Shown: positions 917-61,164 of the stretch, piece after piece
How positions within the stretch are numbered: the first letter of the stretch is position 1
Layout: each line of letters starts with the position of its first letter
From: Polaromonas sp.
GTDB lineage: Bacteria; Pseudomonadota; Gammaproteobacteria; Burkholderiales; Burkholderiaceae_C
Length of the DNA: 64,000 nt
Reading direction: 5' to 3'
Assembly: GCA_043728315.1 (NCBI GenBank)
Contig: JAYTMT010000002.1
Span: 17,138 to 81,137, forward strand
Notes under the pieces: generated by a model
The model's database searches: none
The model's input: only the letters and a program-made list of their open reading frames with translations
What the model was told of the DNA's origin: nothing
Program-made: the position numbers and the translations under genes

Positions 917-960
917 TACTATAAAAACGTAGCGAACTATCACGATATGGCGCTGACATT
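917..960 (-). repeat. degenerate copy (I) of the dispersed AATGTCAGCGTCATATGGTCATA...TATAGTA repeat
   Basis: The reverse complement reads aatgtcagcgccatatcgtgatagttcgctacgtttttatagta. This aligns along its whole length with the consensus from the other 8 copies. Confidence 0.55.
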
Positions 961-1130
961 GCCGCTATTTTCCTTAAGAAATTAAATTTACGCCAATAAC
1001 CCTATTCGAATTACCACCCAGACGCGGACGACCAGAGAATGCAAAACATCGTGTGAAGCCATTGACAAGCTCAGAGCGAACGGCGTAAAAATCGCAGATC
1101 GAGCGGAGAATGGCGAGTACAAGTCGATAC

Positions 1131-2898: not shown

Positions 2899-4821
2899 AT
2901 GAACTCACCCGTGATGCAGGGCCTGGCCCTCAACACCCCCGCGTATGTCAAAAATGCCCGCCTTATCGCGTGGGTGGCCGACATGGTTGCCCTGTGCAAG
3001 CCCCGCGCCATCCACTGGTGCGACGGCTCGCAGGCCGAATACGACCAGTTTTGCGCCCAGCTGGTGGCGGCTGGCACATTCAAGCCGCTAAACCCCGTGC
3101 TGCGCCCCAACTCATTCCTAGCCTGCTCCGACCCCACCGACGTGGCCCGCGTAGAAGACCGCACCTATATTTGCAGCGCCCGCAAAGAAGATGCAGGCCC
3201 GACCAACAATTGGGCTGATCCCGCTGAGATGCGCGGCATATTAGAAACCGGCACGGCTGGCAAAAAAGCTTTATTCGACGGCTGCATGCAAGGCCGCACC
3301 ATGTATGTCGTGCCCTTTAGCATGGGCCCGCTGGGCAGCCCCATTGCCCACATCGGCATCGAGCTGTCCGACAGCGCCTATGTGGCGGTCAACATGCGCA
3401 TCATGACCCGCATGGGCAAGGCCGTGTATGACGTGCTGGGCGTAGAGGGCGAATTTGTGCCCTGCGTACACACCGTGGGCGCACCGCTGGCCGCTGGCCA
3501 ACAAGACGTGAGCTGGCCTTGCAACAGCACCAAATACATCGTGCATTACCCAGCCACCCGAGAAATCTGGAGCTACGGCTCGGGCTACGGCGGAAACGCG
3601 CTCTTGGGTAAAAAGTGCTTTGCGCTGCGCATTGCATCCACCATGGGCAAAAACGATGCACAAGGCCCCTCCGGTAGCCCAGGCTGGCTCGCAGAGCACA
3701 TGCTCATTCTAGGCGTGACCAATCCGCAAGGCAAAAAATACCACGTGGCGGCTGCCTTCCCCAGCGCCTGCGGCAAAACCAATTTCGCCATGCTGATTCC
3801 GCCCGCAGGCTTTGAAGGCTGGAGCGTCACCACCATTGGCGATGACATTGCATGGATCAAGCCCCAAGCCGACGGTACATTACGTGCTATCAATCCAGAA
3901 GCGGGCTACTTCGGCGTAGCGCCGGGCACCAACACATTGACTAACCCCAACTGCATGGCCAGCTTGGACAAAAACACCATTTTCACCAACGTGGCCCTCA
4001 CCGACGACGGCGACGTGTGGTGGGAAGGCATGGGCCCAGCCCCCGCCCACGCCATCGACTGGCAAGGCAAAGACTGGAGCCCCCAAATCGCCAAAGAAAC
4101 CGGCGCAAAGGCGGCGCACCCCAATGCCCGCTTCACAGTAGCCGCCATCAACAACCCCGCGCTCGATGCCGCATGGGACGACGCAGCCGGCGTCAAAATC
4201 GACGCCTTCATCTTCGGCGGCCGCCGCAGCACCACAGTGCCGCTGATCACCGAAGCGCGCAACTGGACCGAAGGCGTCTACATGGCCGCCACCATGGGCA
4301 GCGAGACCACAGCAGCAGCCACCGGCCAAGCAGGCGTGGTCCGCCGCGACCCATTCGCCATGCTGCCGTTTTGCGGCTACAACATGGCCGACTACTTCCA
4401 GCACTGGCTAGACATGGGCGAGAAGCTGGCCAAATCCAATACTAATAACGCAGGCAACACAAGCGTTGCGCTCCCCAAAATCTACACCGCCAACTGGTTC
4501 AGAAAAGGCGCAGCCGGCCAATTCGTCTGGCCCGGCTACGGCGAAAACATGCGCGTGCTCGCATGGATGATCGACCGCATAGAAGGCAAAGCCCCCCAAG
4601 GCACCGACCACCTACTAGGCACCAGCCCCCGCTACCAAGACATCACCTGGACGGGCCTGAACTTCACCGCCGATCAGTTCACCCAAGTCACCAGCATCGA
4701 CAAAGCCGCTTGGCAAGCCGAGCTAAAACTCCACGACGAATTATTCGCCCAACTGCACCACCACTTGCCGCAGGCGCTGGTGGAGACTAAGGCCAAGCTG
4801 GAGGCGCGATTAGCCGCGTAA
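2899..4821 (+). CDS. pckG: phosphoenolpyruvate carboxykinase (GTP)
   Basis: 640-aa ORF with an AGGAG RBS. It carries the GTP-PEPCK hallmarks FPSACGKTN (P-loop), GDDIAWI and NWF. Confidence 0.95.
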
Positions 4822-9226: not shown

Positions 9227-9492
9227 GAAATACAGAACTGCCGAACGCAGAGGGCACAAAAGTTAAGCAGAAGACGCAAAAGCATACCAAAACAGACAGG
9301 ATATGAGTAATATATAAAAAATACTGTTAATGTCACTGTCAAATGGTCATATTATGCTATTAAAATTATAGTACATAATTCGCATATGAAAATCAAAGTT
9401 GAACTTCAGATACCTTCCTTGACAACATTTTGGCTGTTCTTTTGCGTCTTCTGCGTAACTTTTGCGCCCTCCGAGTTCGGCAGTCCGTATTC
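9227..9492 (+). mobile_element. MITE-like hairpin element A (~65-bp imperfect terminal inverted repeats around a dispersed-repeat core)
   Basis: The left arm 9227-9294 aligns with the reverse complement of the right arm 9426-9492, roughly 85% identical by eye. The core repeat lies at 9329-9373. The left end abuts a tandem (atacagaa)x3 at 9214-9237. No ORF of 60 aa or more lies wholly inside (only track ORF 9084..9266 overlaps the left edge). Confidence 0.65.
9329..9373 (+). repeat. dispersed repeat core, copy A
   Basis: aatgtcactgtcaaatggtcatattatgctattaaaattatagta, preceded by aaaaaatactgtt (subfamily 1 left flank). Confidence 0.8.
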
Positions 9493-24347: not shown

Positions 24348-25624
24348 CCGCGCATACTGCTGCGGCTATCTAAAGCTGGTGTTTTCACAAACTTACCGTC
24401 TTTCATCACGGCCAGCATGCGATCTGGCTTGCGCAGAATACCCAAATTCGCCAAAGGATCACCGTCAACTAGGAGCAGGTCAGCGAGATAGCCTTCTTTT
24501 ACCAATCCCAGCTCGTGAGGGCGCATCATGATTTGGCCTCCAAGCTGTGTTGCACTGCGTAGCGCTTGAGCTGGCGTGAAGCCGAGGTATTTTACAAAGA
24601 ACTCCAAATCGCGGGCATTTTGGCCATGCGGCGTGAAGGCAAAGCCGTAATCGCCGCCAGGCAAAACACGGATGCCGCGCTTGCGCATCGCGTTCAGGGA
24701 CTGGAGTGCTGCATCCCATTCGATTTGGTAGCCCATCTCTACGGCTTTGGCATGTGTCGTGCCCCAAGGTTCGGCCTCATAGAGCATGGCATACAGGATG
24801 GCAATACCAGGCGCAACAAATACACGATCACGTGCGGCTTCCAGCATATCCAGTGTTTTTTCATCGGTAAAGCTGGCGTGATAAATCAAATCAATGCCAT
24901 GGCGCAGCGCTTGTTGAATGCTCGCGTTGGATCGCGCATGCGCAATGCCTCGCTTGCCTCGCGTGCGCACCTCATGCATGGCCGCTGCTACTTCTTCATC
25001 ACCCATCCAAGTGGTTTCTGCAGGCGCGTCTGGCACAAAATTGTCGCCCGATAGATTGAGCTTGATCGAATCCACACCGTACTTCAAGAATGTGCGTACC
25101 GCTTTGCGCATCTCATCAGCGCCGCTTACAACCACGCCAAAGCTGAACTCTGGGAAAGGTAAGTGGGATAGCATTTCATCACCCAAACCACCCGCCACAG
25201 TGATTTCTTGGCTAGCTGCCAAGTAGCGTGGCCCAGGAATTTGACCGGCGTTGATGGCATTGCGGATCACAACATCCAAGCGTGGCTTAGCGCAAGCGGC
25301 ACCCAGGCATGATGTCCAGCCAGCCATGAGGTATTGCTTGGCCACTTTGGTACACCACAGCACATGCTCTTCCACTGGCATGGTTTGAATAGCGGACAGG
25401 GTGGCAGCATCGTTCCAAGAGAAATGCGTGTGCGCCTCGACCATGCCAGGCATGAGGGTTGCACCTGCGCCATCGATCACCATGGCATCGCCAATAGAGA
25501 GGCCATGGCTGTTGTGGCTGACCCGCTCTATACGCTGGCCTTGCACGATAACGCTGCCCATGAACGGCTGCTCCCCCGTGCCATCGAAGATGCGAACGTT
25601 AGTGAAATGGATCCGATTAGTCAT
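24335..25624 (-). CDS. amidohydrolase family protein (paralog 2)
   Basis: Track ORF 24335..25696. ATG 25624 (MTNRIHFTNVRIFDG) has a GAGG RBS and avoids overlap with the upstream gene. Metal motif EAHTHFSW. Confidence 0.8.
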   Translation of the reverse strand: MTNRIHFTNVRIFDGTGEQPFMGSVIVQGQRIERVSHNSHGLSIGDAMVIDGAGATLMPGMVEAHTHFSWNDAATLSAIQTMPVEEHVLWCTKVAKQYLMAGWTSCLGAACAKPRLDVVIRNAINAGQIPGPRYLAASQEITVAGGLGDEMLSHLPFPEFSFGVVVSGADEMRKAVRTFLKYGVDSIKLNLSGDNFVPDAPAETTWMGDEEVAAAMHEVRTRGKRGIAHARSNASIQQALRHGIDLIYHASFTDEKTLDMLEAARDRVFVAPGIAILYAMLYEAEPWGTTHAKAVEMGYQIEWDAALQSLNAMRKRGIRVLPGGDYGFAFTPHGQNARDLEFFVKYLGFTPAQALRSATQLGGQIMMRPHELGLVKEGYLADLLLVDGDPLANLGILRKPDRMLAVMKDGKFVKTPALDSRSSMRGWAA

Positions 25625-25634
25625 ATTCTTCGCC

Positions 25635-26936
25635 TCATGCATTCCAGCGCGTGGCTTGCGTGTTGCGCACGGGTGGCTTGCGGTGGAATTTGCCATCTTT
25701 CATGACAGAAAGAATGCGTTTCTTGTCTTGCAGCACCGTGATATCCGTCAGTGGATCGCCATCAATGAGTAAGATATCAGCTAGGTAGCCTTCTTGAATT
25801 TTTCCAAGCTGCTTGCCCAACTTCATTATTGGGCCGCCCCATGCTGTTGCAGACAGCAATGCTTCCATATTGGACATGCCCACGTACTTCACAAAGTACT
25901 CCAAATCTCTGGCATTGGTGCCGTGGGGTGTCCAAGCAAATCCGTAATCACCACCGGGCAGGATGCGCACGCCGCGCTTGTGCAAGGCGCGCATGCTTTC
26001 CATAGCTGCATCAAGCTCGCGGAAATAGCCCATTTTCTTTGCCGCCTCGGGCGTGATGCCCCATTCGCTGGCGTTGTGGCAGGTATTGATCAGCCATGCC
26101 AAGCCGGGTGCAATGAAGTGCCTGCGCTTGCTTTCCTCAAGCATGTCCAGTGTTTCGCTGTCTGTGAAGCTGGCGTGATAGATCACTTCGATGCCATGTT
26201 TAATGCATTGCTGAATCGACCAGGTAGATCGCGCATGGGCTGCAACGCGCTTGCCCCAAGCCTTGGCCTCTTGCACGCAGGTTTTGATTTCTTCTTCTGT
26301 GAATTGGCTCATCTCACTTGGCATGCCTGTGATGGATTCACCCGAGAGATTGATCTTGAGCGAATCTACGCCGTATTTGGTGAACATACGCACGCAGCGG
26401 CGCATTTCTTCCACGCCGCTGACCACTGCACCAAAAGCGAATTCTGATTGTGGCAAATGCGGCTGTGTGGTATCTCCCAAGCCCCCCGGTACCGTAATTT
26501 CTTGGCTTGCTGCCAGATAGCGCGGACCAATTATCGTGCCATCATTAATCGCATTGCGGATGACCACGTCAAGCCTAGGCTTAGCAGTCGCTGCGCCCAC
26601 GCAGCTCGTCCAGCCCATATCCAGATACCGCTCGGCTACTTGTGCGCACCACAAAATATGCTCCTCGGGCGGCATGCGCTGAATCGCATCTAGGCTGGGC
26701 TGGTCATTCCAAGAAAAATGTGTGTGCGCTTCGATCATGCCAGGCATCAAAAATGCGCCCGCACCATCAATCGTCTGCACGCCGTGCACGACTGAGCTGC
26801 TGCCATAGGAGGAGCGGCTCACGCGCGCAATCCGATTGCCCTGCACCAGCACTTCACCACGGAAGGGCTGCTCGCCTGATGCATCAAAGATGCGCACATT
26901 AGTAAATAAAACATCGCTCACGGTTGTATCCTTCAA
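25635..26936 (-). CDS. amidohydrolase family protein (paralog 1)
   Basis: 433 aa. It is collinear with and similar to the downstream paralog (FTNVRIFDASGEQPF..., MIEAHTHFSWND). Confidence 0.8.
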   Translation of the reverse strand: MKDTTVSDVLFTNVRIFDASGEQPFRGEVLVQGNRIARVSRSSYGSSSVVHGVQTIDGAGAFLMPGMIEAHTHFSWNDQPSLDAIQRMPPEEHILWCAQVAERYLDMGWTSCVGAATAKPRLDVVIRNAINDGTIIGPRYLAASQEITVPGGLGDTTQPHLPQSEFAFGAVVSGVEEMRRCVRMFTKYGVDSLKINLSGESITGMPSEMSQFTEEEIKTCVQEAKAWGKRVAAHARSTWSIQQCIKHGIEVIYHASFTDSETLDMLEESKRRHFIAPGLAWLINTCHNASEWGITPEAAKKMGYFRELDAAMESMRALHKRGVRILPGGDYGFAWTPHGTNARDLEYFVKYVGMSNMEALLSATAWGGPIMKLGKQLGKIQEGYLADILLIDGDPLTDITVLQDKKRILSVMKDGKFHRKPPVRNTQATRWNA

Positions 26937-30362: not shown

Positions 30363-30449
30363 CTCTCTGTGCCCGCTACAGCTATCCGCATCCACGTCGC
30401 CAAGCGTCCAACCAATCAAAAAATGCACTGATTTATGAAATTTAAGCAC

Positions 30450-30494
30450 AATGTCAGCGTCATATGGTCATATTGCGCTATTAAAAATGTAGTG
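30450..30494 (+). repeat. dispersed repeat core, copy B
   Basis: aatgtcagcgtcatatggtcatattgcgctattaaaaatgtagtg, with subfamily 2 left flank atttatgaaatttaagcac. It overlaps the 5' end of the caspase-1 ORF. Confidence 0.85.
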
Positions 30495-32831
30495 AATAAA
30501 ATCGCCGTGGCTTGCTCCATAGTCTGCGGCACATGCAGCCTTGGTCTGCCACCAGCGGCTTGGGCGCAAGCGGCCAAGCCCGCCAGCAGCAAGGACGCCG
30601 ACCGCAATTTGCAGGTTACCGCTGCGCCAGCGGCAGCGTTTCCGGGCCAGTCTGCGGGACGGCGCGTGGCCTTGGTGATTGGCAACAGCGCCTACAAAGA
30701 CTCGCCCCTGCTCAACCCCGTGAACGACGCACGCGCTATCAGCGCCGCGCTGACGGAGTCTGGCTTCACCGTGATTGCCCGCGAAAACACCGACCAGCGC
30801 GGCATGCTGTCAGCCCTGCGCGAGTTTGGCGACAAGCTGCGCGACGGCGGCGTGGGTATTTTTTATTACGCAGGCCATGGCATGCAAATCAAGGGGCGCA
30901 ATTATTTGATCCCCGTGGGCGCAAGCATTGAGCGTGAGGACGAGGTGGCCTACAGCGCGGTGGACGCGCAGGCCGTGCTCGACAAAATGGAAGCTGCAGG
31001 CAACGGCACCAACATAATGATTTTAGATGCCTGCCGCAACAACCCCTTTACCCGCAGCACCCGCAGCGGCCAAGCCGGTTTGGCGCAAATGGACGCGCCC
31101 GTGGGCACTTTGGTGGCCTTTGCCACCAGCCCGGGCGCTGTTGCCAGCGACGGCGGCGGGCAAAACGGCCTGTACACCCAGCACCTGCTCACCGCCATGC
31201 GCCAGCAGGGCGCTAAGGTGGAAGATGTGTTCAAGCAGGTGCGCGCCAATGTGCGACGCGACTCGCAGGGCAAGCAAGTGCCATGGGAGAGCACCTCGCT
31301 GGAAGGGGATTTTTACTTCAAAGTGCCCACTGGTTTGACTGCTGGCGCACCCAGCGCGGGTTTCAACGCAAATGCCGCAGTAGAAGCCGCCCTGTGGGAT
31401 GCTGTGAAAAATAGCTCCACACCCATCGAGCTGCGCGCCTACCTTAACCGCTATCCGCAGGGGCAATTTGCAGCGCCCGCGCGCGCGCGCTTGGAGCAAT
31501 TGCTGCCAGCTACAGCGCAAACAGCTGCTGCGGTAAACCCGGCTACCCAAAGCCCCCGCGTGAATTACCGTGTGGGCGATAGCTGGACATTTGCGGTCGA
31601 TAACTTGCTCACCAACAAGCAAAGCAGCTACACCCACCGCATCACATCAGTGGCGGCCAATGGCGACGGTTTGATAAATGAAGGTGCTGTTGTGTATAGC
31701 GCCACGGCCCAAGCCAAATACATACGCAGCGAAGACCGCGAGCGGTTTTATAGCGATGGCTTTCGCAGCACCCCCAGTCAATTGCGCATCGGCTTTAAAG
31801 AGCCTGTGAGCTACGAAATCATCACCAAAAATAAAGACGGCAGAGATGACAAGTTCATAGCCGCAGGCACGATTGAAGTCGCAGCCCAAGAAAAAGTCAG
31901 CACCCCCGCTGGCGAATTCATGGCTTGGCGCATCAAGCGCATCACCCGCGGCACCTTGGCCAACGGCGATGCGCATTTGCTAGACCACACCTACTGGTAT
32001 GCGCCCGAAATAAAACGCTTGGTAGCCCAAGACACCACCGACACCAATCTCACCACAGGCAAAATCACCTCACGCGCCAAGGTGAGCTTGCAAAAATACT
32101 ACTTAGCAGATGCCACCCTGAGCGCCAGCGCAGATGGCATAGCCGCCGTAGAGAAGCGCACCGACGAGTTGCTGGCGCAGCTGGCACTGGCTAAGCCCGC
32201 AAGCAGTGGCAGCCCTAAGCCAAGCATTGCGAGCAACAGCTTTGGCTACACCGTGGGTGACCGCTGGCGCTACCAAACGGTAGACCGCTACAAATCAGAG
32301 GTCACAGGCAATTGGTCGCGTCAGGTGGATAAATTTGATGCACAAGGCGGCATCACCATGCGCGGGGGCACTGTACGCTGGTCAGCAGACGGCTCGTGGC
32401 GCTACCAGCGCGATGCAGATGGCAGCACGCTGGAGTATTCTGATAATTTCAAAATGGTGCCTGCCACGCTCAAGGCGGGTCACTCAGAGAAAGCAAAGTT
32501 CACGCTCACGTGGAAAAACAGCGGTGGAAACGGACAAGAGGAACGCAGCGGTGATGTCAAGGTGCTTGGCCTAGAAAAAATCAAAGTGCCCGCTGGGGAA
32601 TTTGACGCTTGGAAAATCGAGCACAAAGGCTTCATCACAGGTAAAAACCTCAGCGCTTCCACCGCCTATAACCAAAGCTACACCTTGGTGCAATGGTATG
32701 TGCCCGCTCTGCGCGCCTATGTGGCAGAAGACTATGAACGGCGCGATAGCCGTGGCAATATCGACCGCTTTGTTCGCCAAGAGCTCACCAGCTTTGAGGT
32801 GGCAGGGGCTCAGCACCTCGCCCAGCGCTAA
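30492..32831 (+). CDS. exported caspase-family (peptidase C14) protein with two C-terminal beta-rich repeat domains (caspase-1)
   Basis: Signal peptide ...LPPAAWA-QA. C14 blocks VALVIGNSAY, NPVNDA, YYAGHGMQ (His) and LDACRNNPF (Cys). The start is ambiguous: ATG 30435 lies inside the repeat flank, and in-frame GTG 30492 gives a normal-length signal peptide. Confidence 0.8.
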   Translation: MNKIAVACSIVCGTCSLGLPPAAWAQAAKPASSKDADRNLQVTAAPAAAFPGQSAGRRVALVIGNSAYKDSPLLNPVNDARAISAALTESGFTVIARENTDQRGMLSALREFGDKLRDGGVGIFYYAGHGMQIKGRNYLIPVGASIEREDEVAYSAVDAQAVLDKMEAAGNGTNIMILDACRNNPFTRSTRSGQAGLAQMDAPVGTLVAFATSPGAVASDGGGQNGLYTQHLLTAMRQQGAKVEDVFKQVRANVRRDSQGKQVPWESTSLEGDFYFKVPTGLTAGAPSAGFNANAAVEAALWDAVKNSSTPIELRAYLNRYPQGQFAAPARARLEQLLPATAQTAAAVNPATQSPRVNYRVGDSWTFAVDNLLTNKQSSYTHRITSVAANGDGLINEGAVVYSATAQAKYIRSEDRERFYSDGFRSTPSQLRIGFKEPVSYEIITKNKDGRDDKFIAAGTIEVAAQEKVSTPAGEFMAWRIKRITRGTLANGDAHLLDHTYWYAPEIKRLVAQDTTDTNLTTGKITSRAKVSLQKYYLADATLSASADGIAAVEKRTDELLAQLALAKPASSGSPKPSIASNSFGYTVGDRWRYQTVDRYKSEVTGNWSRQVDKFDAQGGITMRGGTVRWSADGSWRYQRDADGSTLEYSDNFKMVPATLKAGHSEKAKFTLTWKNSGGNGQEERSGDVKVLGLEKIKVPAGEFDAWKIEHKGFITGKNLSASTAYNQSYTLVQWYVPALRAYVAEDYERRDSRGNIDRFVRQELTSFEVAGAQHLAQR

Positions 32832-36740: not shown

Positions 36741-36763
36741 GGTAAATTATAAAAAATACTACT

Positions 36764-36807
36764 GATGTCATCGTCATATGGTCATAGTGTGCTATTAAAT
36801 TAATACT
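36764..36807 (+). repeat. dispersed repeat core, copy C
   Basis: gatgtcatcgtcatatggtcatagtgtgctattaaattaatact, preceded by aaaaaatactact. It ends 18 nt before the caspase-3 GTG. Confidence 0.8.
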
Positions 36808-36825: not shown

Positions 36826-38418
36826 GTGATTCATAAATTCTCAAAACGGCTTGCATGCTTGGCGGCATCCACGCAAATTTCACGCACTTTGGCCAAATCT
36901 GCACTGGCCCTGGCCATCACAGCTTCGCTGCTGCCGCTGTCTGCCCAAGCCCCGGTTGACCTGCGCATTGCCTTGGTGATTGGCAACGCTGCGTATGCAG
37001 GCGCAGCCGCGCTGGCCAACCCTGCCAACGATGCCAAGGCCATGGGCGAGGCGCTGCGCGGCCTAGGCTTTGCCGTGGTTGAGATCCGCGACGGCAGCCG
37101 CGCCCAGATGGCAGAGGCTATAGGCAAGGTGCAAGCAAGCCTCAAAGGCAAGCAAGGCATAGGCATGCTTTACTACGCAGGCCACGGCCTGCAAGTCGAT
37201 TGGCGCAACTTCATGGTGCCCATTGATGCCAAGCTGGCCAAAGCCGCCGATGTGCCAGAGCAAACCATAGATTTGGGGAGCGTCATCGACGCATTCAAAT
37301 CAGCTGGCAACCGCATGAACATTGTGGTGCTCGATGCCTGCCGCGACAACCCGTTTGAAACAGGCGGCAACAAAGTGTCCACAGGCAAAGGCCTAGCACC
37401 GCTTGATGCGCCTACGGGCACATTCCTAGCCTATGCCACCGCGCCTGGCAATGTGGCCGAAGACGGCGATACCAAAAGCGTGGACGGAAAAGCAGGCAAT
37501 GGCCTGTACACCCAATTTTTATTGCAAGAGCTCAAAAAACCAGCAGCCAAAATCGAAGACGTGTTCAAGCGTGTGCGCCTGAACGTGCGCCAAAAATCCG
37601 AAGGCAGACAAATCCCGTGGGAGTCCACCAGTTTAGAAGACGACTTTTATTTCAACGCAGGCCTCAAGTCCACGCAAAAAGAATCCGACAGCGACAAAGA
37701 AAAAGCCTTTGCACTAGAAAAAGCCGATTGGGACAAGATCAAAGACAGCAAAGCGGCCAACGACTTTTATGCGTTTTTGCAGAAATACCCCAGTGGTTTT
37801 ATTACCGAGCAGGCGCAATTCAAAGTAGAGCAACTTCAAAAGGCGCAAACAAACGCGGTTGCTAATCGCGACGGTGTGACCCCAATTGCCGCCAGCGCAC
37901 GCAGATTTCGTCTGGGCGACGAGACAGAATTGGACATCATTGACGGATTTACCAAACTGAGTCGCCGAGTGAAAATAACGGTGGTTAAGGCCAATGACGA
38001 AGAAGTTGAACTTAGCGCAGGACAGATTTGGGGGCAAACAGGTACATTGCTGAAAAATAACTTTGGCACGCACAGCCCCGGCATTTTGATTTCCCCATCA
38101 GATTTGGCATTAGGTAAGCGTTGGAAAACCGCTTTTCAAACCAAAAGACCAGATGGTGTACTGGAAACCTCGTTTTGGGAATACCACGCAAAAGCATACG
38201 AGACGATTACTGTGCCGCAAGGGACATTCAAGGCGATCTATGTAGTTGGCAGTGGTCAGGCGCGCTGGCCTAATGGCATCACCCATTTAGAGGCCAAGTC
38301 GTGGTTTGATCCCGTTAGTTTGCGCAGGCTGCGTCACGAAAGTATTTTTCGCAACAGCGGAAAAATTACCCATTTTCAAATCATTGATTCGGTGTCTTTT
38401 AAACAAGGCGCGGGTTGA
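36826..38418 (+). CDS. exported caspase-family (C14) protein with one C-terminal beta-rich repeat domain (caspase-3)
   Basis: GTG start after a GAGGAG RBS. Signal peptide ...LPLSAQA-PV. C14 blocks ALVIGNAAY, NPANDA, YYAGHGLQ and LDACRDNPF. It is a close paralog of the caspase-1 protease domain. Confidence 0.85.
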   Translation: MIHKFSKRLACLAASTQISRTLAKSALALAITASLLPLSAQAPVDLRIALVIGNAAYAGAAALANPANDAKAMGEALRGLGFAVVEIRDGSRAQMAEAIGKVQASLKGKQGIGMLYYAGHGLQVDWRNFMVPIDAKLAKAADVPEQTIDLGSVIDAFKSAGNRMNIVVLDACRDNPFETGGNKVSTGKGLAPLDAPTGTFLAYATAPGNVAEDGDTKSVDGKAGNGLYTQFLLQELKKPAAKIEDVFKRVRLNVRQKSEGRQIPWESTSLEDDFYFNAGLKSTQKESDSDKEKAFALEKADWDKIKDSKAANDFYAFLQKYPSGFITEQAQFKVEQLQKAQTNAVANRDGVTPIAASARRFRLGDETELDIIDGFTKLSRRVKITVVKANDEEVELSAGQIWGQTGTLLKNNFGTHSPGILISPSDLALGKRWKTAFQTKRPDGVLETSFWEYHAKAYETITVPQGTFKAIYVVGSGQARWPNGITHLEAKSWFDPVSLRRLRHESIFRNSGKITHFQIIDSVSFKQGAG

Positions 38419-38454
38419 TACATTAGCCCAAAATACATCCATCTTTTTTACATA

Positions 38455-38694
38455 ATGCCTCAAAAAACTCCCCCCTTAGCTAGTGCTGCCGATACCGAAC
38501 GCGACGCTTTAGAGTTGCGCACTCGTAAGCTGCAAGTGCGTGCTGCGTTACGCGCCAAGCATGCAGAGCGCTCCGCACGCGCAGCTTCTTGTGCCAGCAT
38601 GGTTGGCATATTACCCAAACCAAGTGACCAGTGCAGAACCTTGGTTATCGGCAACGCCTACTCAGGCAAGGCTGCTTTGGCCAACGATGCCTAG
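38455..38694 (+). pseudogene. remnant of a fourth caspase gene (only the first ~25 codons of the C14 domain, ending at TAG)
   Basis: 38636-38710 (ccttggttatcggcaacgcc...gccaacgatgccTAGgccatgggcg) aligns with caspase-3 36970-37046 (ccttggtgattggcaacgct...gccaacgatgccAAGgccatgggcg). Similarity stops ~12 nt before the convergent EamA stop. Confidence 0.5.
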
Positions 38695-38721
38695 GCCATG
38701 GGCGCGGGGAGTACTGCTGGG

Positions 38722-44939: not shown

Positions 44940-45935
44940 TCAGGTGGCTTGGTTGCCGCCCAATACCCCATGCGCCTGCTCGTCTGCGTGGTAGCTCGAA
45001 CGCACCATAGCTCCCACGGCGGCGTGGCTAAAACCCATCTTGTAAGCCTCGGCTTCAAACATTTTGAAGACATCGGGGTGCACGTAGCGTTTGACTGGCA
45101 AATGCGACAGGCTTGGCGCGAGGTATTGGCCAATGGTGAGCATGTCGATGTGGTGCTCGCGCATGTCGCGCATGGTTTGCAAAATTTCTTCGTCAGTCTC
45201 GCCCAAGCCGACCATGATGCCGCTTTTGGTGGGTACATTGGGGAACAGCGCTTTGAATTTTTTGAGTAAGTTGAGGCTAAAAGCGTAGTCAGAGCCGGGG
45301 CGGGCTTCTTTGTAAAGCCTTGGGATGGTCTCTAGGTTGTGGTTCATCACGTCGGGGGGCGCGAGTTTGAGGATCTCTAGCGCGCGGTCGTCGCGGCCTC
45401 TGAAATCGGGCACCAGCACTTCAATGGTGGTGCCCGGCGAGAGCTCGCGGGTTTTGCGGATGCATTCGACAAAATGCGCCGCGCCGCCGTCGCGCAGGTC
45501 GTCGCGGTCCACGCTGGTGATCACCACGTATTTGAGCTTGAGCTTGGCGATTGTTTTAGCCATGTTCTCTGGCTCAAGCGCGTCCAGCGGGTCTGGGCGG
45601 CCATGGCCCACATCGCAAAACGGGCAGCGGCGGGTGCATTTGTCGCCCATGATCATGAAAGTGGCCGTGCCTTTGCCAAAACATTCGCCGATGTTGGGGC
45701 AACTGGCCTCTTCGCACACTGTGTGCAAATTGCTCTCGCGCAGGATTTGCTTGATTTCGTAAAAGCGCGTGCTGGGCGAGCCCGCTTTCACGCGGATCCA
45801 GTCGGGTTTTTTCAGCACTTCGCCGCGCTCCACCTTGATGGGGATGCGGCTGAGCTTGGCAGCCGCTTTTTGCTTGGCCAGCGGGTTGTAGGCTTCTTGG
45901 GATTGGGCGTCGCGCACGACTTCTAGGGTACTCAT
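44940..45935 (-). CDS. lipA: lipoyl synthase
   Basis: [12 protein letters not shown] and radical-SAM CTRRCPFC motifs. ATG 45935 (MSTLEVV) is chosen; the track ORF's 65-codon upstream extension overlaps lipB. Confidence 0.95.
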
Positions 45936-46072: not shown

Positions 46073-46855
46073 TCAGGCCGCCAAATAGCGCGTGAGTTTG
46101 TCTGCCAACACCTGCGCCACTTCGTTCCAACTGGCTTGCACCCCCAGCGTAGCCATGTCAATGGTTTGCAGCCCCGCATAGCCGCAGGGGTTGATGCGCG
46201 AAAACGGCTCTAAATCCATCGCCACATTCAGCGCCACCCCGTGGTAAGTGCAGTGGCGGCTCACCTTGATGCCCAGCGCCGCGATTTTGCCAAGGCCCGT
46301 GAAATCCAAAGAATTAGGGTCAGAACCTAATTGTTTGGCGCTTGGCGCGTTGGAGTCTGGCAAATAATTAGGTTCTGACCCTAATTCTTTTTTCTGAGGC
46401 CGCTGCGCAAAGGGGCTGTGGCCAAAGGGGTCATCCAACCGCACGTAGATGCCCGGCGCGCCTGCCAAGCGGTGGCCAGTGATGCCAAAATGCAGCAGGG
46501 TTTTAAGCACCGATTCTTCGATTTTATAAACGTATTCTTTGACAAAATAACCAGCGCGCTTGAGATCTATCAGCGGATACGCCACCACCTGCCCAGGTCC
46601 ATGGTAGGTCACCTGCCCGCCCCGGTTGGTTTGCACCACGGGGATGCCAGCAGCGTTAAAAATATGTTCTGCCTTGCCCGCCAACCCTTGGGTAAACACC
46701 GCATCATGCTCGCATATCCATAGCGTATTATGACCATATGACGCTGACATTGGGCTAATTTTATTCAAATTACCGTTCAAACGGTCATCTGTATAGGCCT
46801 GCATCGCCGCATACGTGTCGGCGTAGTTCACGCGGCCTAGAAAACGGGTGTGCAT
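46073..46855 (-). CDS. lipB: octanoyltransferase carrying two in-frame repeat insertions
   Basis: Motifs [29 protein letters not shown] and INPCGYAGL. At 260 aa it is longer than typical LipB because of the segments encoded by 46721-46766 and 46308-46390. Confidence 0.9.
46308..46390. repeat. palindromic element (25-bp perfect inverted repeat, 33-nt spacer) inside lipB
   Basis: aaagaattagggtcagaacctaatt (46308-46332) is the exact reverse complement of aattaggttctgaccctaattcttt (46366-46390). It is read in frame as ...[28 protein letters not shown]... Confidence 0.85.
46721..46751 (-). repeat. dispersed repeat core, copy D (left half only) inside lipB
   Basis: The reverse complement reads aatgtcagcgtcatatggtcataatacgcta with left flank aatttgaataaaattagccc. 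It is translated in frame as [14 protein letters not shown]. Confidence 0.8.
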
Positions 46856-46874: not shown

Positions 46875-47147
46875 TCACAACACCACTTTCACCATCGGGT
46901 GCGTGCTCATGGTGCGGTACACCTCGTCGAGCTGCTCTCGGCTGGTGGCGGTGATGGTGACGGTAACACCTAGGTATTTGCCGCCGCTGGATTCGCGCAG
47001 CTCGATGCTGCTGGCATCAAAATGGGGGTCAAACTGCTGGGCAATATGGGTGACTGCTGCCACCATGCCCTCTACCTTGAGCCCCATGACTTTGATGGGG
47101 AACTGGCAGGGGTATTCGATCAGGGATTGTTCGGGAGGGATGTCCAT
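46875..47147 (-). CDS. ybeD: YbeD-family (DUF493) protein
   Basis: 90 aa, [11 protein letters not shown] motif, and the conserved position upstream of lipB. Confidence 0.85.
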
Positions 47148-47251: not shown

Positions 47252-48265
47252 TTAGGCTGTGACAGTGGCGGCCTTGGCCGCTTGGTAGGCGGCGTAGAGT
47301 TTTTGGTAAACGGGGCCGGGTTGGCCTGCGTGGCTTTGATTTTGGCCGACTTTTTTGCCGTCTAGCGTTGTCACAGCCAGCACTTCTTTGGTGGCGGATG
47401 ACAAAATGAGTTCGTCGCAGTTCAGCACTTCCTCACGGCTTAAGCGGCGCAGTTCAAAGGGAATTCCACTGGCGGCGCACATGTCGGCAATCAGGCCGTA
47501 GCGGATGCCTTCGAGCACCAAGTTGTCTTTGGGCGGGCCGTAGACCACACCGTTTTTCACCACCCACACATTGCTGGAAGCGGCTTCTGAGAGGTAATCA
47601 CCGCGAAACATCACGGTTTCCACTGCGTCTGCATCTACGCTGATTTGGCGGGCAAACACCGAGCCGAGCAGGCTGGTGGACTTGATGTGGGCCTTTTGCC
47701 AGCGGAAATCATCGGCGCTTACGCAGGCCACGCCGCGCTCGCGCTGCGCGGGGCTGGGGCGGGGCAGGCGGTTGCACATGGCAAACACGGTGGGCGTGAT
47801 GCCTGCGGGCATGGCGTGGTCGCGCAGGGCCACGCCGCGCGTGAGCTGGATGTAGATCAGGTGGTCGGTGGGGCTTTCAGGGCTGTCTTTAGCGCTGCTT
47901 TGGGGCGCTGGCGCGCTATCCGCTGGCGCCAAAGTGCCCGCAGCGCTGTCAAGCGCTGAATTTACAGAATTTTTGGCTAATGTCAGCGTAAAATGGTCAT
48001 AGTGCGCTATGAGTTGCATAGCAATAGCTTTCCATTCACCCCGCGTATGGGGGTTGGCAATGCGCATCTCAGCCAAGCTGCGCTCCAGCCGCGCCATGTG
48101 CTGCTCAAAGCGAAACACCCGCCCGCCGTAGCTGGCCAACACCTCATACACCCCATCGCCAAAGATAAACCCTCGGTCCATCACGCTGACCTTGGCTTCG
48201 TTAAGCGGGGTGTAGGCACCGTTGAGGTAACAGGGGGTGGCGGGGATGTCTTGGGTGGTTTGCAT
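47252..48265 (-). CDS. dat: class IV (D-amino-acid/branched-chain) aminotransferase with an in-frame insertion
   Basis: VSVMDRGFIFGDGVYEV, IYIQLTRG and a class IV C-terminus. An extra ~45 aa precede the IYIQLTRG block. Confidence 0.8.
   Translation of the reverse strand: MQTTQDIPATPCYLNGAYTPLNEAKVSVMDRGFIFGDGVYEVLASYGGRVFRFEQHMARLERSLAEMRIANPHTRGEWKAIAMQLIAHYDHFTLTLAKNSVNSALDSAAGTLAPADSAPAPQSSAKDSPESPTDHLIYIQLTRGVALRDHAMPAGITPTVFAMCNRLPRPSPAQRERGVACVSADDFRWQKAHIKSTSLLGSVFARQISVDADAVETVMFRGDYLSEAASSNVWVVKNGVVYGPPKDNLVLEGIRYGLIADMCAASGIPFELRRLSREEVLNCDELILSSATKEVLAVTTLDGKKVGQNQSHAGQPGPVYQKLYAAYQAAKAATVTA
47979..48010 (+). repeat. dispersed repeat core, copy E (left half only) inside dat, antisense to the gene
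   Basis: aatgtcagcgtaaaatggtcatagtgcgctat, read on the minus strand as IAHYDHFTLTLA. Confidence 0.75.
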
Positions 48266-48298
48266 GGTTTGGCGTAGTTGGCGGGTTGGCTTGGGTCA

Positions 48299-48539
48299 TA
48301 TTCGGGTTTCCGGCCGCGAAGGGCGCGAAAGTTGCGCTAAAAACGCGAAAGGAAAACCAAAAAATAAGAAAAAATAAAAATACTAGCAATGTCAGCGTGA
48401 TATGGTTATTTTATGCTATTAAAAATATAGTATATAGAAAAAAATGCTAAACTTTATATGCTTTCGCAGATATTACTTTGGCTGTTTTTTAGCGTTTTTC
48501 GCGCAACTTTCGCGCCCTTCGCGGCCGGAAGTCCGAATA
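48299..48539 (+). mobile_element. MITE-like hairpin element F (~64-bp inverted arms around a dispersed-repeat core)
   Basis: The left arm 48299-48362 aligns with the reverse complement of the right arm 48476-48539 (tattcgggtttccggccgcgaagggcgcgaaagttgcgc... vs tattcggacttccggccgcgaagggcgcgaaagttgcgc...). Confidence 0.7.
48388..48433 (+). repeat. dispersed repeat core, copy F
   Basis: aatgtcagcgtgatatggttattttatgctattaaaaatatagtat, preceded by aaaaatactagc. Confidence 0.8.
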
Positions 48540-48552
48540 ACCCCCCAAGCAA

Positions 48553-49656
48553 CTAGCGACGCACAGCAAGCCGCCGAGTCTCCCCAACAGCCATCAAAAA
48601 GAAATCATCCTCAGAAATCTTGTGTGCCAGCCGCGCCGCCGCCAAGTCGCGCGGGGGCTGGTCCAGTGGCTCGTCGGTGAGGTTGAATGTGCCACAATGC
48701 ACGCCCACGCTGCGTTTAGCGCCTAGGTCTTTGTGGATTTGCACGGCTTCGTCGGGGTTCACATGTTGCGATTTCATGAACCAGCGCGGCTCGTAAGCCC
48801 CCACTGCTATCAAAGCAATATCAAAGCCGCCGCCTAGGGCTGCGCTTTGGCGCTCGGCAAAGCGCTTTTTGGTGTCTGCAAAATCCTGCGAATACCCCGT
48901 GTCGCCGCTGAAATACCAATGAAACTGCGGGCCAATAGCGGCCCAGCCGCCCCACAGGGTTTGGCTGCGGTCGCCCACGCCGCGCGCGGACCAGTGCTGC
49001 ACGGGGGTGAAGGTAAATTCGGTCTCGCCTAGCTTGGCGGTATCCCACTAGTCAAGTTCTTTGACATTGGTGACCCCAAGGTTTTCCATCCAAGGCTTGA
49101 TGCCCAGTGGCACTAAAAACAGGGTTTTGCCTTTAGATGCTGCGTTCAGCGCCAACACCGAGTCTTTGTCCAAATGGTCATAGTGGTTGTGCGAGATCAG
49201 CACCACGTCAATGGCTGGCAGCTGGTCTATGCGCAGCCCGGGCGGCTGGGCTCGCTTGGGGCCGGCAAACTGCACTGGCGAAGCGCGCTCTGAAAACACG
49301 GGGTCGGTCAGCACATTCAGGCCATTCGATTGCACCAGCATGGTGGCATGCCCCACCCAGGTGATGGCGGGCTGCATGGCAGCACCAGCCTTGGCATTAG
49401 CGCTCACAAAAGCGAGATCGGGGGCGGTCACGGGTGTGGCAGTTTCAGGCTTCGCTGGCGGCATGCCCTTGAGCAAACGCTCCCATTGCCAACGCGCAAA
49501 CGCGCCAAAGCCCTTTTCCTGTGCGGCAGGGTCGTTGTTTTTGAAGCCTACAGGAGTATGGTGGGATTTTAAGCGGTCGTAATAGGGGTTCACAGCGGTG
49601 CATCCGGTAAGTCCTGTGAGGAAGCTAAGGCAAATGAGGGCGGAGATGCGGCGCAT
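48553..49656 (-). pseudogene. MBL-fold metallo-hydrolase lipoprotein interrupted by one in-frame TAG
   Basis: Track ORFs 49048..49656 and 48553..49002 are in the same frame. Reading through TAG (49048-50) gives ...VKELD*WDTAKLGETEFTFTPVQHWSARG... Lipobox LTGC and metal motif SHNHYDHLD are present. Confidence 0.7.
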
Positions 49657-49673: not shown

Positions 49674-49715
49674 TATAAAATTAATAGCACACTATGACCA
49701 TATGACGCTGACATT
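49674..49715 (-). repeat. dispersed repeat core, copy G
   Basis: The reverse complement reads aatgtcagcgtcatatggtcatagtgtgctattaattttata with left flank aatttatagattttcagcac. It ends 17 nt upstream of the MBL gene ATG (49656). Confidence 0.85.
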
Positions 49716-49750
49716 GTGCTGAAAATCTATAAATTAACAGCCAAACAGCA

Positions 49751-60785: not shown

Positions 60786-60804
60786 GTTTTGAAAAGGAGA
60801 ATTT

Positions 60805-61164
60805 ATGAAAAAACAAGGCAATGTCAGCGTCATATGGCCATATACCGCTATATTAATTATAGTATTGACAGGGCTTGTAGCTTGCGCTGCACCAGAGCCT
60901 AGCGGCCTAGCCAAGGCCAGTTTGCCCTTTTACCGCTGCGAACACGGCATCGCCTTCACTGCCAAATTTGATGGCGATGCGGTAACTCTGGATTCAAGCC
61001 GTGGCTACGACCTATTGTTTGCCCGCAGCAAGGCCGAACAAGACAAACAGGAATACAGCAATCCGCGCATGAGCGCCAGCTTTGGCCTAGGCAGCAGCGG
61101 GCGCGAGGCGCAGTTGCGCTACCCCTTATTGCCATTGATTGCGCGTTGCGTGCGGGATAATTAG
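60805..61164 (+). CDS. small lipoprotein, MliC-like (tentative)
   Basis: Lipobox LTGLVAC, 119 aa, Cys near both ends of the mature part, and adjacent to mltA. The signal peptide is encoded by repeat copy H. Confidence 0.55.
   Translation: MKKQGNVSVIWPYTAILIIVLTGLVACAAPEPSGLAKASLPFYRCEHGIAFTAKFDGDAVTLDSSRGYDLLFARSKAEQDKQEYSNPRMSASFGLGSSGREAQLRYPLLPLIARCVRDN
60820..60864 (+). repeat. dispersed repeat core, copy H
   Basis: aatgtcagcgtcatatggccatataccgctatattaattatagta, with left flank aatttatgaaaaaacaaggc. Confidence 0.85.

Follow-up and report, generated by a model that had tools for sequence, protein, structure and literature searches.

The lipB gene (octanoyltransferase) at positions 46073..46855 on the minus strand of a 64-kb stretch of Polaromonas DNA, hereafter called the window, raises the question of how a housekeeping gene comes to carry two different repeat-like sequences within its reading frame, and whether their presence reflects anything beyond tolerance. 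An earlier note, drawn from the DNA letters alone, had described both as in-frame insertions: a copy of a dispersed repeat (element 1) near the N-terminus and a perfect inverted repeat (element 2) in the central part. The gene reads exactly as quoted there, as an open reading frame (ORF) of 260 codons containing the two peptides in frame and without stops. The comparisons described below suggest more than tolerated insertions, in that concerted evolution with dispersed repeats appears to extend into several housekeeping genes; yet the events are old, in-frame repeats are known, and only 18 aa of the central segment are extra. The window belongs to a scaffold of 82 kb that comes from the metagenome of a glacier-fed stream, and 8.9 kb more of the same scaffold brings the portion of the genome covered to about 73 kb. 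The nearest GTDB species representative is a Polaromonas metagenome-assembled genome (MAG), with a LipB identity of 88%. Five close relatives, represented by metagenome and MAG contigs (L001 and L004-L007), were used for comparison.

The LipB protein scores 165.7 bits with TIGR00214 (cut-off 83.55) and 94.8 with Pfam LplA-B_cat (PF21948; cut-off 27). It falls slightly under the cut-offs of the clade-specific models NF010923 and NF010922, where the central loop splits the match in two. The LipB structures of M. tuberculosis (PDB 1w66) and T. thermophilus (2qhs) match it by sequence and by fold: an AlphaFold2 (AF2) model with a mean predicted local distance difference test (pLDDT) score of 80.3 and a predicted template-modelling score (pTM) of 0.81 retrieved 1w66 in Foldseek with an E value of 1.6e-20 and a TM score of 0.82, and 2qhs with a TM score of 0.84 (both normalised to the target). 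Residues K190 and C224 are invariant in 121 homologues and correspond, in the alignment, to the RKVAAIG lysine and the VPCG cysteine of 1w66; we take this Lys/Cys pair to be the catalytic dyad, as in M. tuberculosis LipB. With the two loops excluded, dN/dS relative to the five close relatives is 0.04-0.11 at dS 0.07-0.78. As judged from sequence and model, lipB is a functional octanoyltransferase gene under purifying selection. A non-functional gene, which the earlier note had named as an outcome that would overturn its proposal, is hard to match with an intact frame, a profile score above the TIGR00214 cut-off and the apparent purifying selection.

Both repeat-derived segments lie in loops of the predicted structure, as the note had anticipated. 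The pLDDT of the AF2 model drops below 50 at residues 31-38 and 157-178 only, and these are the two segments in question; the former stands between helix 11-26 and strand 44-49, the latter between strands 136-139 and 188-194. Sequence matches to PDB entries break at query positions 139/186, hidden Markov model (HMM) matches likewise split at the central loop, and this loop ends 5 residues ahead of the invariant Lys190. At the DNA level the two stop-free, in-frame segments are AT-rich dips (GC 0.38-0.45) in a gene of about 60% GC. Loop lengths and repeat cores were surveyed across 86 Comamonadaceae lipB loci. The stretch from PGIYV to GLGKI measures 21-58 aa in this sample, most commonly 32 aa, and 50 aa in the window, and the central loop is hypervariable in the whole LipB family. 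The N-terminal loop, from a conserved Arg to Leu-Trp, has 7 residues in repeat-free Comamonadaceae and 19 in the window, a gain of about 12 aa. The length of 260 aa given in the earlier note is correct, but its view that the length is unusual did not hold, because Comamonadaceae LipB proteins range from 232 to 274 aa. The lipB loops are probably permissive, so that any stop-free, in-frame sequence would persist there.

Element 1 occupies 46720..46774 (minus strand) as delimited by repeat search and alignment of the copies; it is in sense orientation and in frame and accounts for 18 residues (approximately aa 28-45). The repeat search itself extends the lipB copy to 46720-46782, clear similarity being confined to 46720-46774. 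The membership of this segment in a dispersed family, proposed in the earlier note, was borne out: its 22-nt core, ATGTCAGCGTCATATGGTCATA, equals the family consensus with no mismatch, and nine copies were found in the window (allowing up to 4 mismatches) plus four in the adjoining 8.9 kb, that is, 13 in 73 kb. The repeat is about 55-65 nt long and is laid out as an AT-rich left part, a lineage-specific core of about 25 nt, AGCTAT, seven AT-rich bases and ATAG. The copy in lipB is without the AT-rich tail and the ATAGT motif because it is cut off directly after GCTAT; in lipB the similarity always ends at GCTAT|GG, the Leu-Trp codons of LWICEH.

The core of the window's element 1 is confined to the window clade among the 86 loci, and the lipB copy is present in six of the six sampled lineages of that clade. 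Four further groups were recognised: G2 (L014, L018, L024, L037, L045, L053 and L066), G3 (L009, L013, L016 and L029), G4 (L083) and G5 (Rhodoferax L010 and L012), with one dispersed copy each for G4 and G5. At the homologous lipB codons, these groups show matches to different short sequences that are dispersed in their own or closely related genomes. The dispersed sequences of all groups share the architecture of core, AGCTAT or AGCTAC, seven AT-rich bases and ATAG, which was not a search criterion. When the 24 nt upstream of AGCTAT are compared, lipB shows an identity of 0.67-0.96 with dispersed copies from its own group and of about 0.3-0.7 with those from the other groups; each of the five Polaromonas/Rhodoferax groups has its own repeat core mirrored in its own lipB codons. 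Since the sites of at least five lineages are occupied by lineage-specific versions of the family, element 1 does not represent a simple recent hit. The match between genic and dispersed copies probably reflects concerted evolution, most readily by ectopic gene conversion into coding DNA, and on these alignments element 1 is older than the split of lineages separated by dS 0.4-0.8, not recent.

Element 1 was found inside at least four genes besides lipB, encoding an aminotransferase, a lipoprotein signal peptide, heptosyltransferase II and an FAA-family hydrolase. The heptosyltransferase II gene (L123:12993-13988, on the same scaffold, outside the window) carries a full-length copy without any change in length. 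A motif that reads NLAGKTSLAQAIHAQAASKIIVTNDSG in more than 50 homologues reads NLAGKTPLVSAIWSLFASKSVVTNDSG in the window clade, where 8 of 15 near-invariant residues, beside the NDSG motif, are replaced and the DNA matches the repeat. The corresponding DNA of other Polaromonas-like lineages (..CATGCGCAAGCAGCTAGTAAAATCATAGTC..) is significantly similar to the repeats of G2, G3, G4 and G5 (local-alignment z of 5-14 in all but one comparison), and the gene of the window genome is similar only to the G1 repeats (z 11-17). A high-GC relative has GC-rich codons at this segment, with no repeat similarity by eye. The family probably arose from the heptosyltransferase II segment or captured it very early.

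The class IV (D-amino-acid) aminotransferase gene (47252..48265, minus strand, identified by profile match), which lies next to ybeD, contains a copy (47957-48020) that runs antisense to the gene, stays in frame and gives the peptide AMQLIAHYDHFTLTLAKNSVNS. The antisense strand of orthologues from many Polaromonas and Rhodoferax lineages reads ..AGCTATTAATTTAGTAGC.., and these encode IAxKLIA with rare codons. Behind the repeat copy comes a hypervariable loop of about 40 aa that is rich in Ala, Pro and Ser; the protein stays under the NCBIfam cut-offs, with a match that falls into two parts. A lipoprotein ORF at 60805-61164 takes its Shine-Dalgarno sequence, its ATG and its first 20 or so codons, which specify a signal peptide, from another copy (60798..60861, plus strand). 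This lipoprotein (MKKQGNVSVIWPYTAILIIVLTGLVAC) is conserved and 119 aa long; 70 homologues were found, and the repeat-derived N-terminus occurs only in the window clade. A repeat-like sequence with 4 mismatches, translated as HNISVKSSYSAPHSV, lies in the FAA-family hydrolase gene (L123:20460-20482, likewise on the same scaffold and outside the window).

Element 2 was delimited by repeat search as two 30-nt arms, 46308-46337 and 46361-46390, that are 97% complementary and separated by 23 nt. Its perfect portion comprises 25 nt (46308-46332 and 46366-46390) with a 33-nt spacer, confirming the inverted repeat as described before. The 21-mer AATTAGGGTCAGAACCTAATT is found in 64 kb only at the two arm sites (0.00 expected in shuffled sequences), and each arm is itself a near-palindrome that differs from its own reverse complement at 3 positions. 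Arm 1, the first in the gene (46361..46390, minus strand; AAAGAATTAGGGTCAGAACCTAATTATTTG), encodes KELGSEPNY and has no variable column in three lineages. The centre of the spacer (46338..46360, minus strand) encodes part of a 10-residue peptide; in the lineage alignment this DNA evolves about neutrally and includes an indel. Arm 2 (46308..46337, minus strand; CAAACAATTAGGTTCTGACCCTAATTCTTT) encodes 10 residues and ends 5 codons before Lys190. The mRNA is predicted to form a stem of 25-29 bp (-56.3 kcal/mol, z -7.9); folded as DNA, the palindrome gives -31.7 kcal/mol (z -10.5).

Two arms are shared by the window, L005 and L006; L001 retains arm 1 alone, and L004 and L007 retain a unit of the arm-2 type alone. 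In the one-arm forms (L001, L004 and L007) the loop is exactly 32 aa, the family-typical length, and for that reason only the spacer and one arm (18 aa; 54-66 nt) are clearly extra DNA. The insertion put forward in the earlier note therefore stands for these 18 aa; the rest is the family's usual loop, which goes part of the way towards the ancestral segment that the note had said would count against it. The spacer has 17 of 33 columns variable (52%) among the window, L005 and L006, with a 12-nt indel in L005. Being alignable by eye at roughly neutral divergence, the three spacers were taken as homologous, and therefore the two-arm state appears ancestral to these lineages. L004 and L005 are separated by a dS of only 0.07 yet differ by a 66-nt in-frame indel at the palindrome, and the arms of L004 and L007 are starting to decay. 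The indel junctions fit slippage between the AATTAGG/CCTAATT parts common to the arms, by which the long palindrome would repeatedly collapse to one arm through these direct-repeat parts. Element 2, too, is older than the split of lineages at dS 0.4-0.8, as far as the alignments indicate. It is probably an old doublet, resembling those formed by repetitive extragenic palindromic (REP) sequences and known as REPINs, in which two inverted copies of a small palindrome sit in a loop that is hypervariable family-wide.

The unit of the class to which this palindrome belongs is GGGTC(A/T)GACCC. A metagenome scan for AATTAGGKTCWGAMCCTAATT returned 34 loci of 37-70% GC, none of them lipB; 31 of these have the perfectly palindromic form GGGTC(A/T)GACCC, though only two of the eight variants allowed by the search are palindromic. 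The matches are intergenic, often with several related units per contig. Because the scan returned no lipB locus, copies within and outside lipB are not countable in the same genomes. Contig L105 (GC 0.59) has four dispersed intergenic copies, at 2029, 2795, 7166 and 10528, of the asymmetric variant GGTTCTGACCC, which is the variant of the window's arms; two of the four are inside a longer shared repeat. Paired GGGTC(A/T)GACCC palindromes also stand between genes in L097, a contig of GC 0.68 (741-795 and 1514-1568); there one of them gives the stop codon to a 3'-5' exonuclease-like ORF, and a spurious ORF begins MGSDPNF. Judged by its sequence, the lipB palindrome is a member of a genuine and broadly distributed class of small palindromes, REP-like in habit, which in this lineage is known only from lipB.

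Several lineages carry hairpins, related or unrelated, in the same loop, which makes the central loop of lipB a recurrent home for such structures. Among other Polaromonas-like lineages, GSEP...GSDP doublets are present in L014, L024, L018, L053 and L008, a single unit in L033, and a unit in another frame in L083 (KWGQTPF). A REP-like palindrome that is rich in GC and unrelated to these units sits in the loop of L015, L052, L066 and L067, where it is read as PSPASGRGSE...PLPLAGEGRGEG. In L015 its hairpin reaches -89 kcal/mol (z -12), and the GSEP/GSDP hairpins of other lineages give z of -4.4 to -5.7; the loop of repeat-free Hydrogenophaga lipB has no structure (z 0.07).

Taken together, the reading that we favour as reasonably probable is that of a functional lipB whose loops have been colonised by repeats, with the genic copies kept in step by conversion. 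Short repeats of a non-coding type would have entered two permissive loops, where they are now translated as disordered peptide, and ectopic gene conversion, as opposed to a succession of new insertions, would keep the genic copies of element 1 in line with the repeat consensus that the genome has at present. That the conserved AGCTAT-N7-ATAG palindrome serves conversion as a recognition site is only a guess. A number of observations weigh against this account. Empty sites in other strains, for which the earlier note had proposed a search, did not come to light: neither the six sampled lineages of the clade nor any close relative offers one for element 1, the sites being occupied by lineage-specific versions, and since no empty-site allele was found, insertion of element 1 is deduced only from repeat-free genera. 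Conversion, in turn, is inferred from patterns. No transposase, REP-associated tyrosine transposase (RAYT) or nuclease turned up, the window ORFs not having been systematically scanned for Y1 transposases. The further genomic copies of the palindrome that the note had looked forward to are likewise missing: its core was not found outside lipB in the 64-kb window, in the 8.9 kb more of the scaffold (73 kb in all) or in about 40 kb of close relatives, the class being seen in the intergenic DNA of other bacteria. A relaxed core search over 1.43 Mb around lipB in the 86 Comamonadaceae loci yielded three sites outside the lipB loop, two of which are without AT-rich flanks and look like chance, the third being a loose match at two mismatches. 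With other copies not found, the status of the palindrome as a mobile element in this lineage is indirect. To these points must be added the behaviour of the arms. They have 0 of 50 columns variable in three lineages, whereas the remainder of the gene has 17.7% and third codon positions have 39.8% (P about 6e-5), and they use codons disfavoured in the genome, such as TTA. This identity holds across lineages that stand dS 0.42-0.62 apart and extends to the one arm of L001; given about 12 synonymous arm sites and a tree about 0.8 in length, roughly 9-10 synonymous changes would be expected. The constancy of the arms argues, at the level of sequence comparison, for a nucleotide-level constraint over mere tolerance. 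Plain tolerance, as the earlier note had it, fits the loops and the intact gene but does not predict this conservation at synonymous sites.

The alternative that the embedded sequences are selected nucleic-acid elements, either a hairpin for RNase III processing or decay control or a protein-binding site tuning lipB/lipA, with the peptide as a by-product, stays alive because of the constant arms, and is possible, though we consider it rather unlikely. Arm identity beside a nearly neutral spacer speaks for it, as do the very stable hairpin, the recurrence of hairpins in the same loop in several lineages and the conservation of the same 21-mer palindrome in unrelated bacteria. The hairpin is nevertheless dispensable, since one-arm lineages (L001, L004 and L007) and G3-type alleles without the palindrome exist, and the arms of L004 and L007 are already decaying; moreover, invariant arms hence show no covariation, promoter and terminator signals are at background, and there is no Rfam family. 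That nothing was inserted, and that ancestral LipB coding sequence drifted or was converted in place towards repeat-like or palindromic sequence, appears improbable. The one-arm loops, which also count against colonisation, align without gaps to the E-x-G-S-x-P-x-x-x-D-F of repeat-free Delftia and Hydrogenophaga; in-place overwriting does occur, because the heptosyltransferase II repeat sits in native codons with length unchanged; and lipB genes without the repeat already contain AGCT(G/A)TGG at their Leu-Trp codons. But the longer N-terminal loop is AT-rich and resembles the AT-rich left part and core of the repeat, the second arm and spacer are additional DNA, and an unrelated REP-like palindrome in the same loop elsewhere is hard to obtain by drift. 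Likewise improbable, in our estimate, is a genic master copy, in lipB or more plausibly in heptosyltransferase II, that continually spawns the dispersed copies. Such a master would agree with the co-variation in every group and with the significant similarity of the whole repeat, left and right parts, to the heptosyltransferase II segment GKTSLxQAIHAQAASKIIV, a motif that the enzyme family has as its own. In the clade, however, each of the six lipB copies carries an A (CATAAT) where the 12 tabulated dispersed copies carry T or G; lipB as master copy or direct source is ruled out by this base, absent from the dispersed copies examined. The 8/15-residue change in heptosyltransferase II looks like replacement from a drifted non-coding copy, and not like the gradual change of a master held by constraint on its protein, and conversion would still be required to update lipB and the aminotransferase (dat). 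Together, the block replacement and the lipB-specific base make it likelier that sequence passes from the dispersed copies to the genes than that a gene acts as the master. Finally, the suspicion that lipB is a decaying pseudogene or an assembly artefact is effectively refuted: long palindromes can in principle be mis-assembled, and no other support was found, but the low dN/dS and the invariant catalytic residues contradict decay, and the two-arm structure occurs in independent assemblies from different samples (window, L005, L006, L121 and L122).

A stronger form of the conversion idea would hold that an active, sequence-specific copying process, homing-like or triggered by a nuclease, continually rewrites patches of about 50 nt at fixed positions of heptosyltransferase II, lipB and the aminotransferase and at hundreds of intergenic sites, that the family derives from heptosyltransferase II, and that the lipB palindrome is a selected cis-element. 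Taken jointly, these propositions seem doubtful to us; if true, the proteins of each lineage would carry their own current repeat 'dialect'.

The copies of element 1 lie mostly between genes. Repeat search and alignment placed an intergenic copy at 929..991 (minus strand). The copy at 30428..30491 (plus) is directly upstream of a caspase-like (Peptidase_C14) gene, and that at 36742..36805 (plus) begins 2 nt past a stop codon, upstream of a paralogous gene; the paralogous caspase-like (Peptidase_C14) genes occupy 30435-32831 and approximately 36829-38700 of the window, each with a repeat copy ahead of it. A copy at 49684..49746 (minus) precedes a gene for a metallo-beta-lactamase-fold protein and has an orthologous copy at L001:2886. 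Two others, at 9307..9370 and 48366..48429 (both plus), are nested in larger palindromic elements of about 250 bp (9237-9484 and 48266-48572), which have arms of 56-96 nt sharing GCGYAACTTTYGCGCCCTYCG and enclose one copy each. A further match resembling these arms is found at L001:4089-4109. The alignment of the nine copies disclosed neither terminal inverted repeats nor a target-site duplication, and Rfam gave no match at the gathering threshold anywhere in the 64-kb window; a literature search by palindrome sequence produced nothing relevant.

Several readings considered for the two elements were set aside. For element 1, a sigma-70 promoter (TGGTCA-17-TATAGT) can be read in the window copies, but other groups do not preserve its -35-like part; a promoter scan picked CTGACA-16-TAAATT on the reverse strand of two copies, at counts equal to background, and it was not adopted. 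A sigma-54 promoter fails on spacing. A mini-ORF (MSASYGH..) in the dispersed copies meets a stop at codon 4 in 3 of 14 copies, and its frame is not conserved in other groups. Mutagenic homing of the kind carried out by diversity-generating retroelements (DGR) does not suit variation that is not adenine-specific. The A6 run ahead of the hairpin was likewise dismissed as a site of programmed -1 frameshifting, the A AAA AAG heptamer not being in the zero frame and the run forming the base of the stem.

The gene order ybeD-lipB-lipA is intact in the window. An intact DUF493/YbeD-like gene (46875..47147, minus strand; ORF and profile match) lies upstream of lipB, and an intact lipA gene for lipoyl synthase (44940..45935, minus strand; TIGR00510 426.6 bits, cut-off 310) lies downstream. 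A TctC-family gene (L001:6699-7709) stands between lipB and lipA in a close relative; the two are adjacent in the window. L066 has, 2.4 kb upstream of the real lipB, a second and incomplete copy of the gene's 5' part (4182-4254; AMKHFTAARS...QLLICEHFAV), 82% identical over 73 nt. Elsewhere in the window, 25178-25478 and 26472-26772 are diverged tandem duplicates, about 70% identical and 1294 nt apart.

The survival of in-frame repeats would not be limited to reduced intracellular genomes, as it is met here in a free-living freshwater bacterium, in lipB, a transaminase, a lipopolysaccharide (LPS) heptosyltransferase and a lipoprotein. The lineage-wise match between genic and dispersed copies may offer a rare testable case of concerted evolution of a short repeat in coding sequence, including block replacement in a conserved enzyme motif, and constant arms beside a drifting spacer in one ORF amount to a natural experiment separating DNA- or RNA-level from protein-level constraint. 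For annotation, such genes miss some curated thresholds and their HMM matches are split, although they are apparently functional.

In-frame repeats in genes are known already; what appears to be new here is that lineage-specific genic copies track the consensus of the dispersed ones. Rickettsia palindromic elements (RPEs) were reportedly described by Ogata et al. in 2000. They are summarised in PMC3733652, a study by Di Nocera et al. [quoted passage not shown] The view that such insertions are otherwise rare outside Rickettsia was too strong, because in-frame copies of REPs, MITEs and RPEs are all on record there (PMC3733652, PMC2229807, PMC5896051). These three kinds of element seem the closest in behaviour to the sequences described here, and for RPEs it is a resemblance of behaviour only that we claim. 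Among the named families with which they were compared, the sequences appear to belong to none. With RPEs the shared features are short in-frame repeats in conserved, apparently functional genes, several genes per genome, and a peptide outside the conserved fold; the occurrence in many copies and in other genes applies to element 1 (13 copies in 73 kb, five genes) and not to element 2. There is, however, no apparent sequence relation; the elements measure 55 nt and 83 nt as against about 100-150 nt, the host is a free-living member of the Comamonadaceae and not a reduced intracellular genome, and element 1 is not a strong palindrome. Here, moreover, genic copies change together with the dispersed copies specific to each lineage, and in one gene the repeat has overwritten native codons at constant length.

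Element 2 resembles REPs and REPINs in consisting of 21-30-nt near-palindromic units arranged as an inverted doublet, with related units in other bacteria that are intergenic, single or paired, and sometimes give a gene its stop codon. It differs in that the arms (AAAGAATTAGGGTCAGAACCTAATT) have neither the GTAG nor the CGTC tag, which at one end is a criterion for REPs (PMC3733652), in being confined to one locus in 73 kb, and in having a core shared by bacteria of 37-70% GC, where REPs are usually lineage-specific. Like MITEs and small mobile sequences, the repeats appear non-autonomous and occur between and within genes, adding peptide and supplying gene starts; in contrast, the orthologous sites of element 1 stay occupied while their sequences are updated, and its nine aligned copies, two of them nested in the larger palindromes, showed no terminal inverted repeats or target-site duplications. 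DNA uptake sequences (USS/DUS), which are 9-12 nt long, occur in coding DNA, and palindromic units are said to be species-specific (Gilson et al. 1987). The likeness to both would be in the way orthologous copies follow each lineage's consensus, as in concerted evolution or molecular drive, and lie within genes without indels where the peptide is tolerated; the present unit (about 45-60 nt) is much longer than either and, relative to uptake sequences, rarer (about 1 per 6 kb), and nothing ties it to transformation.

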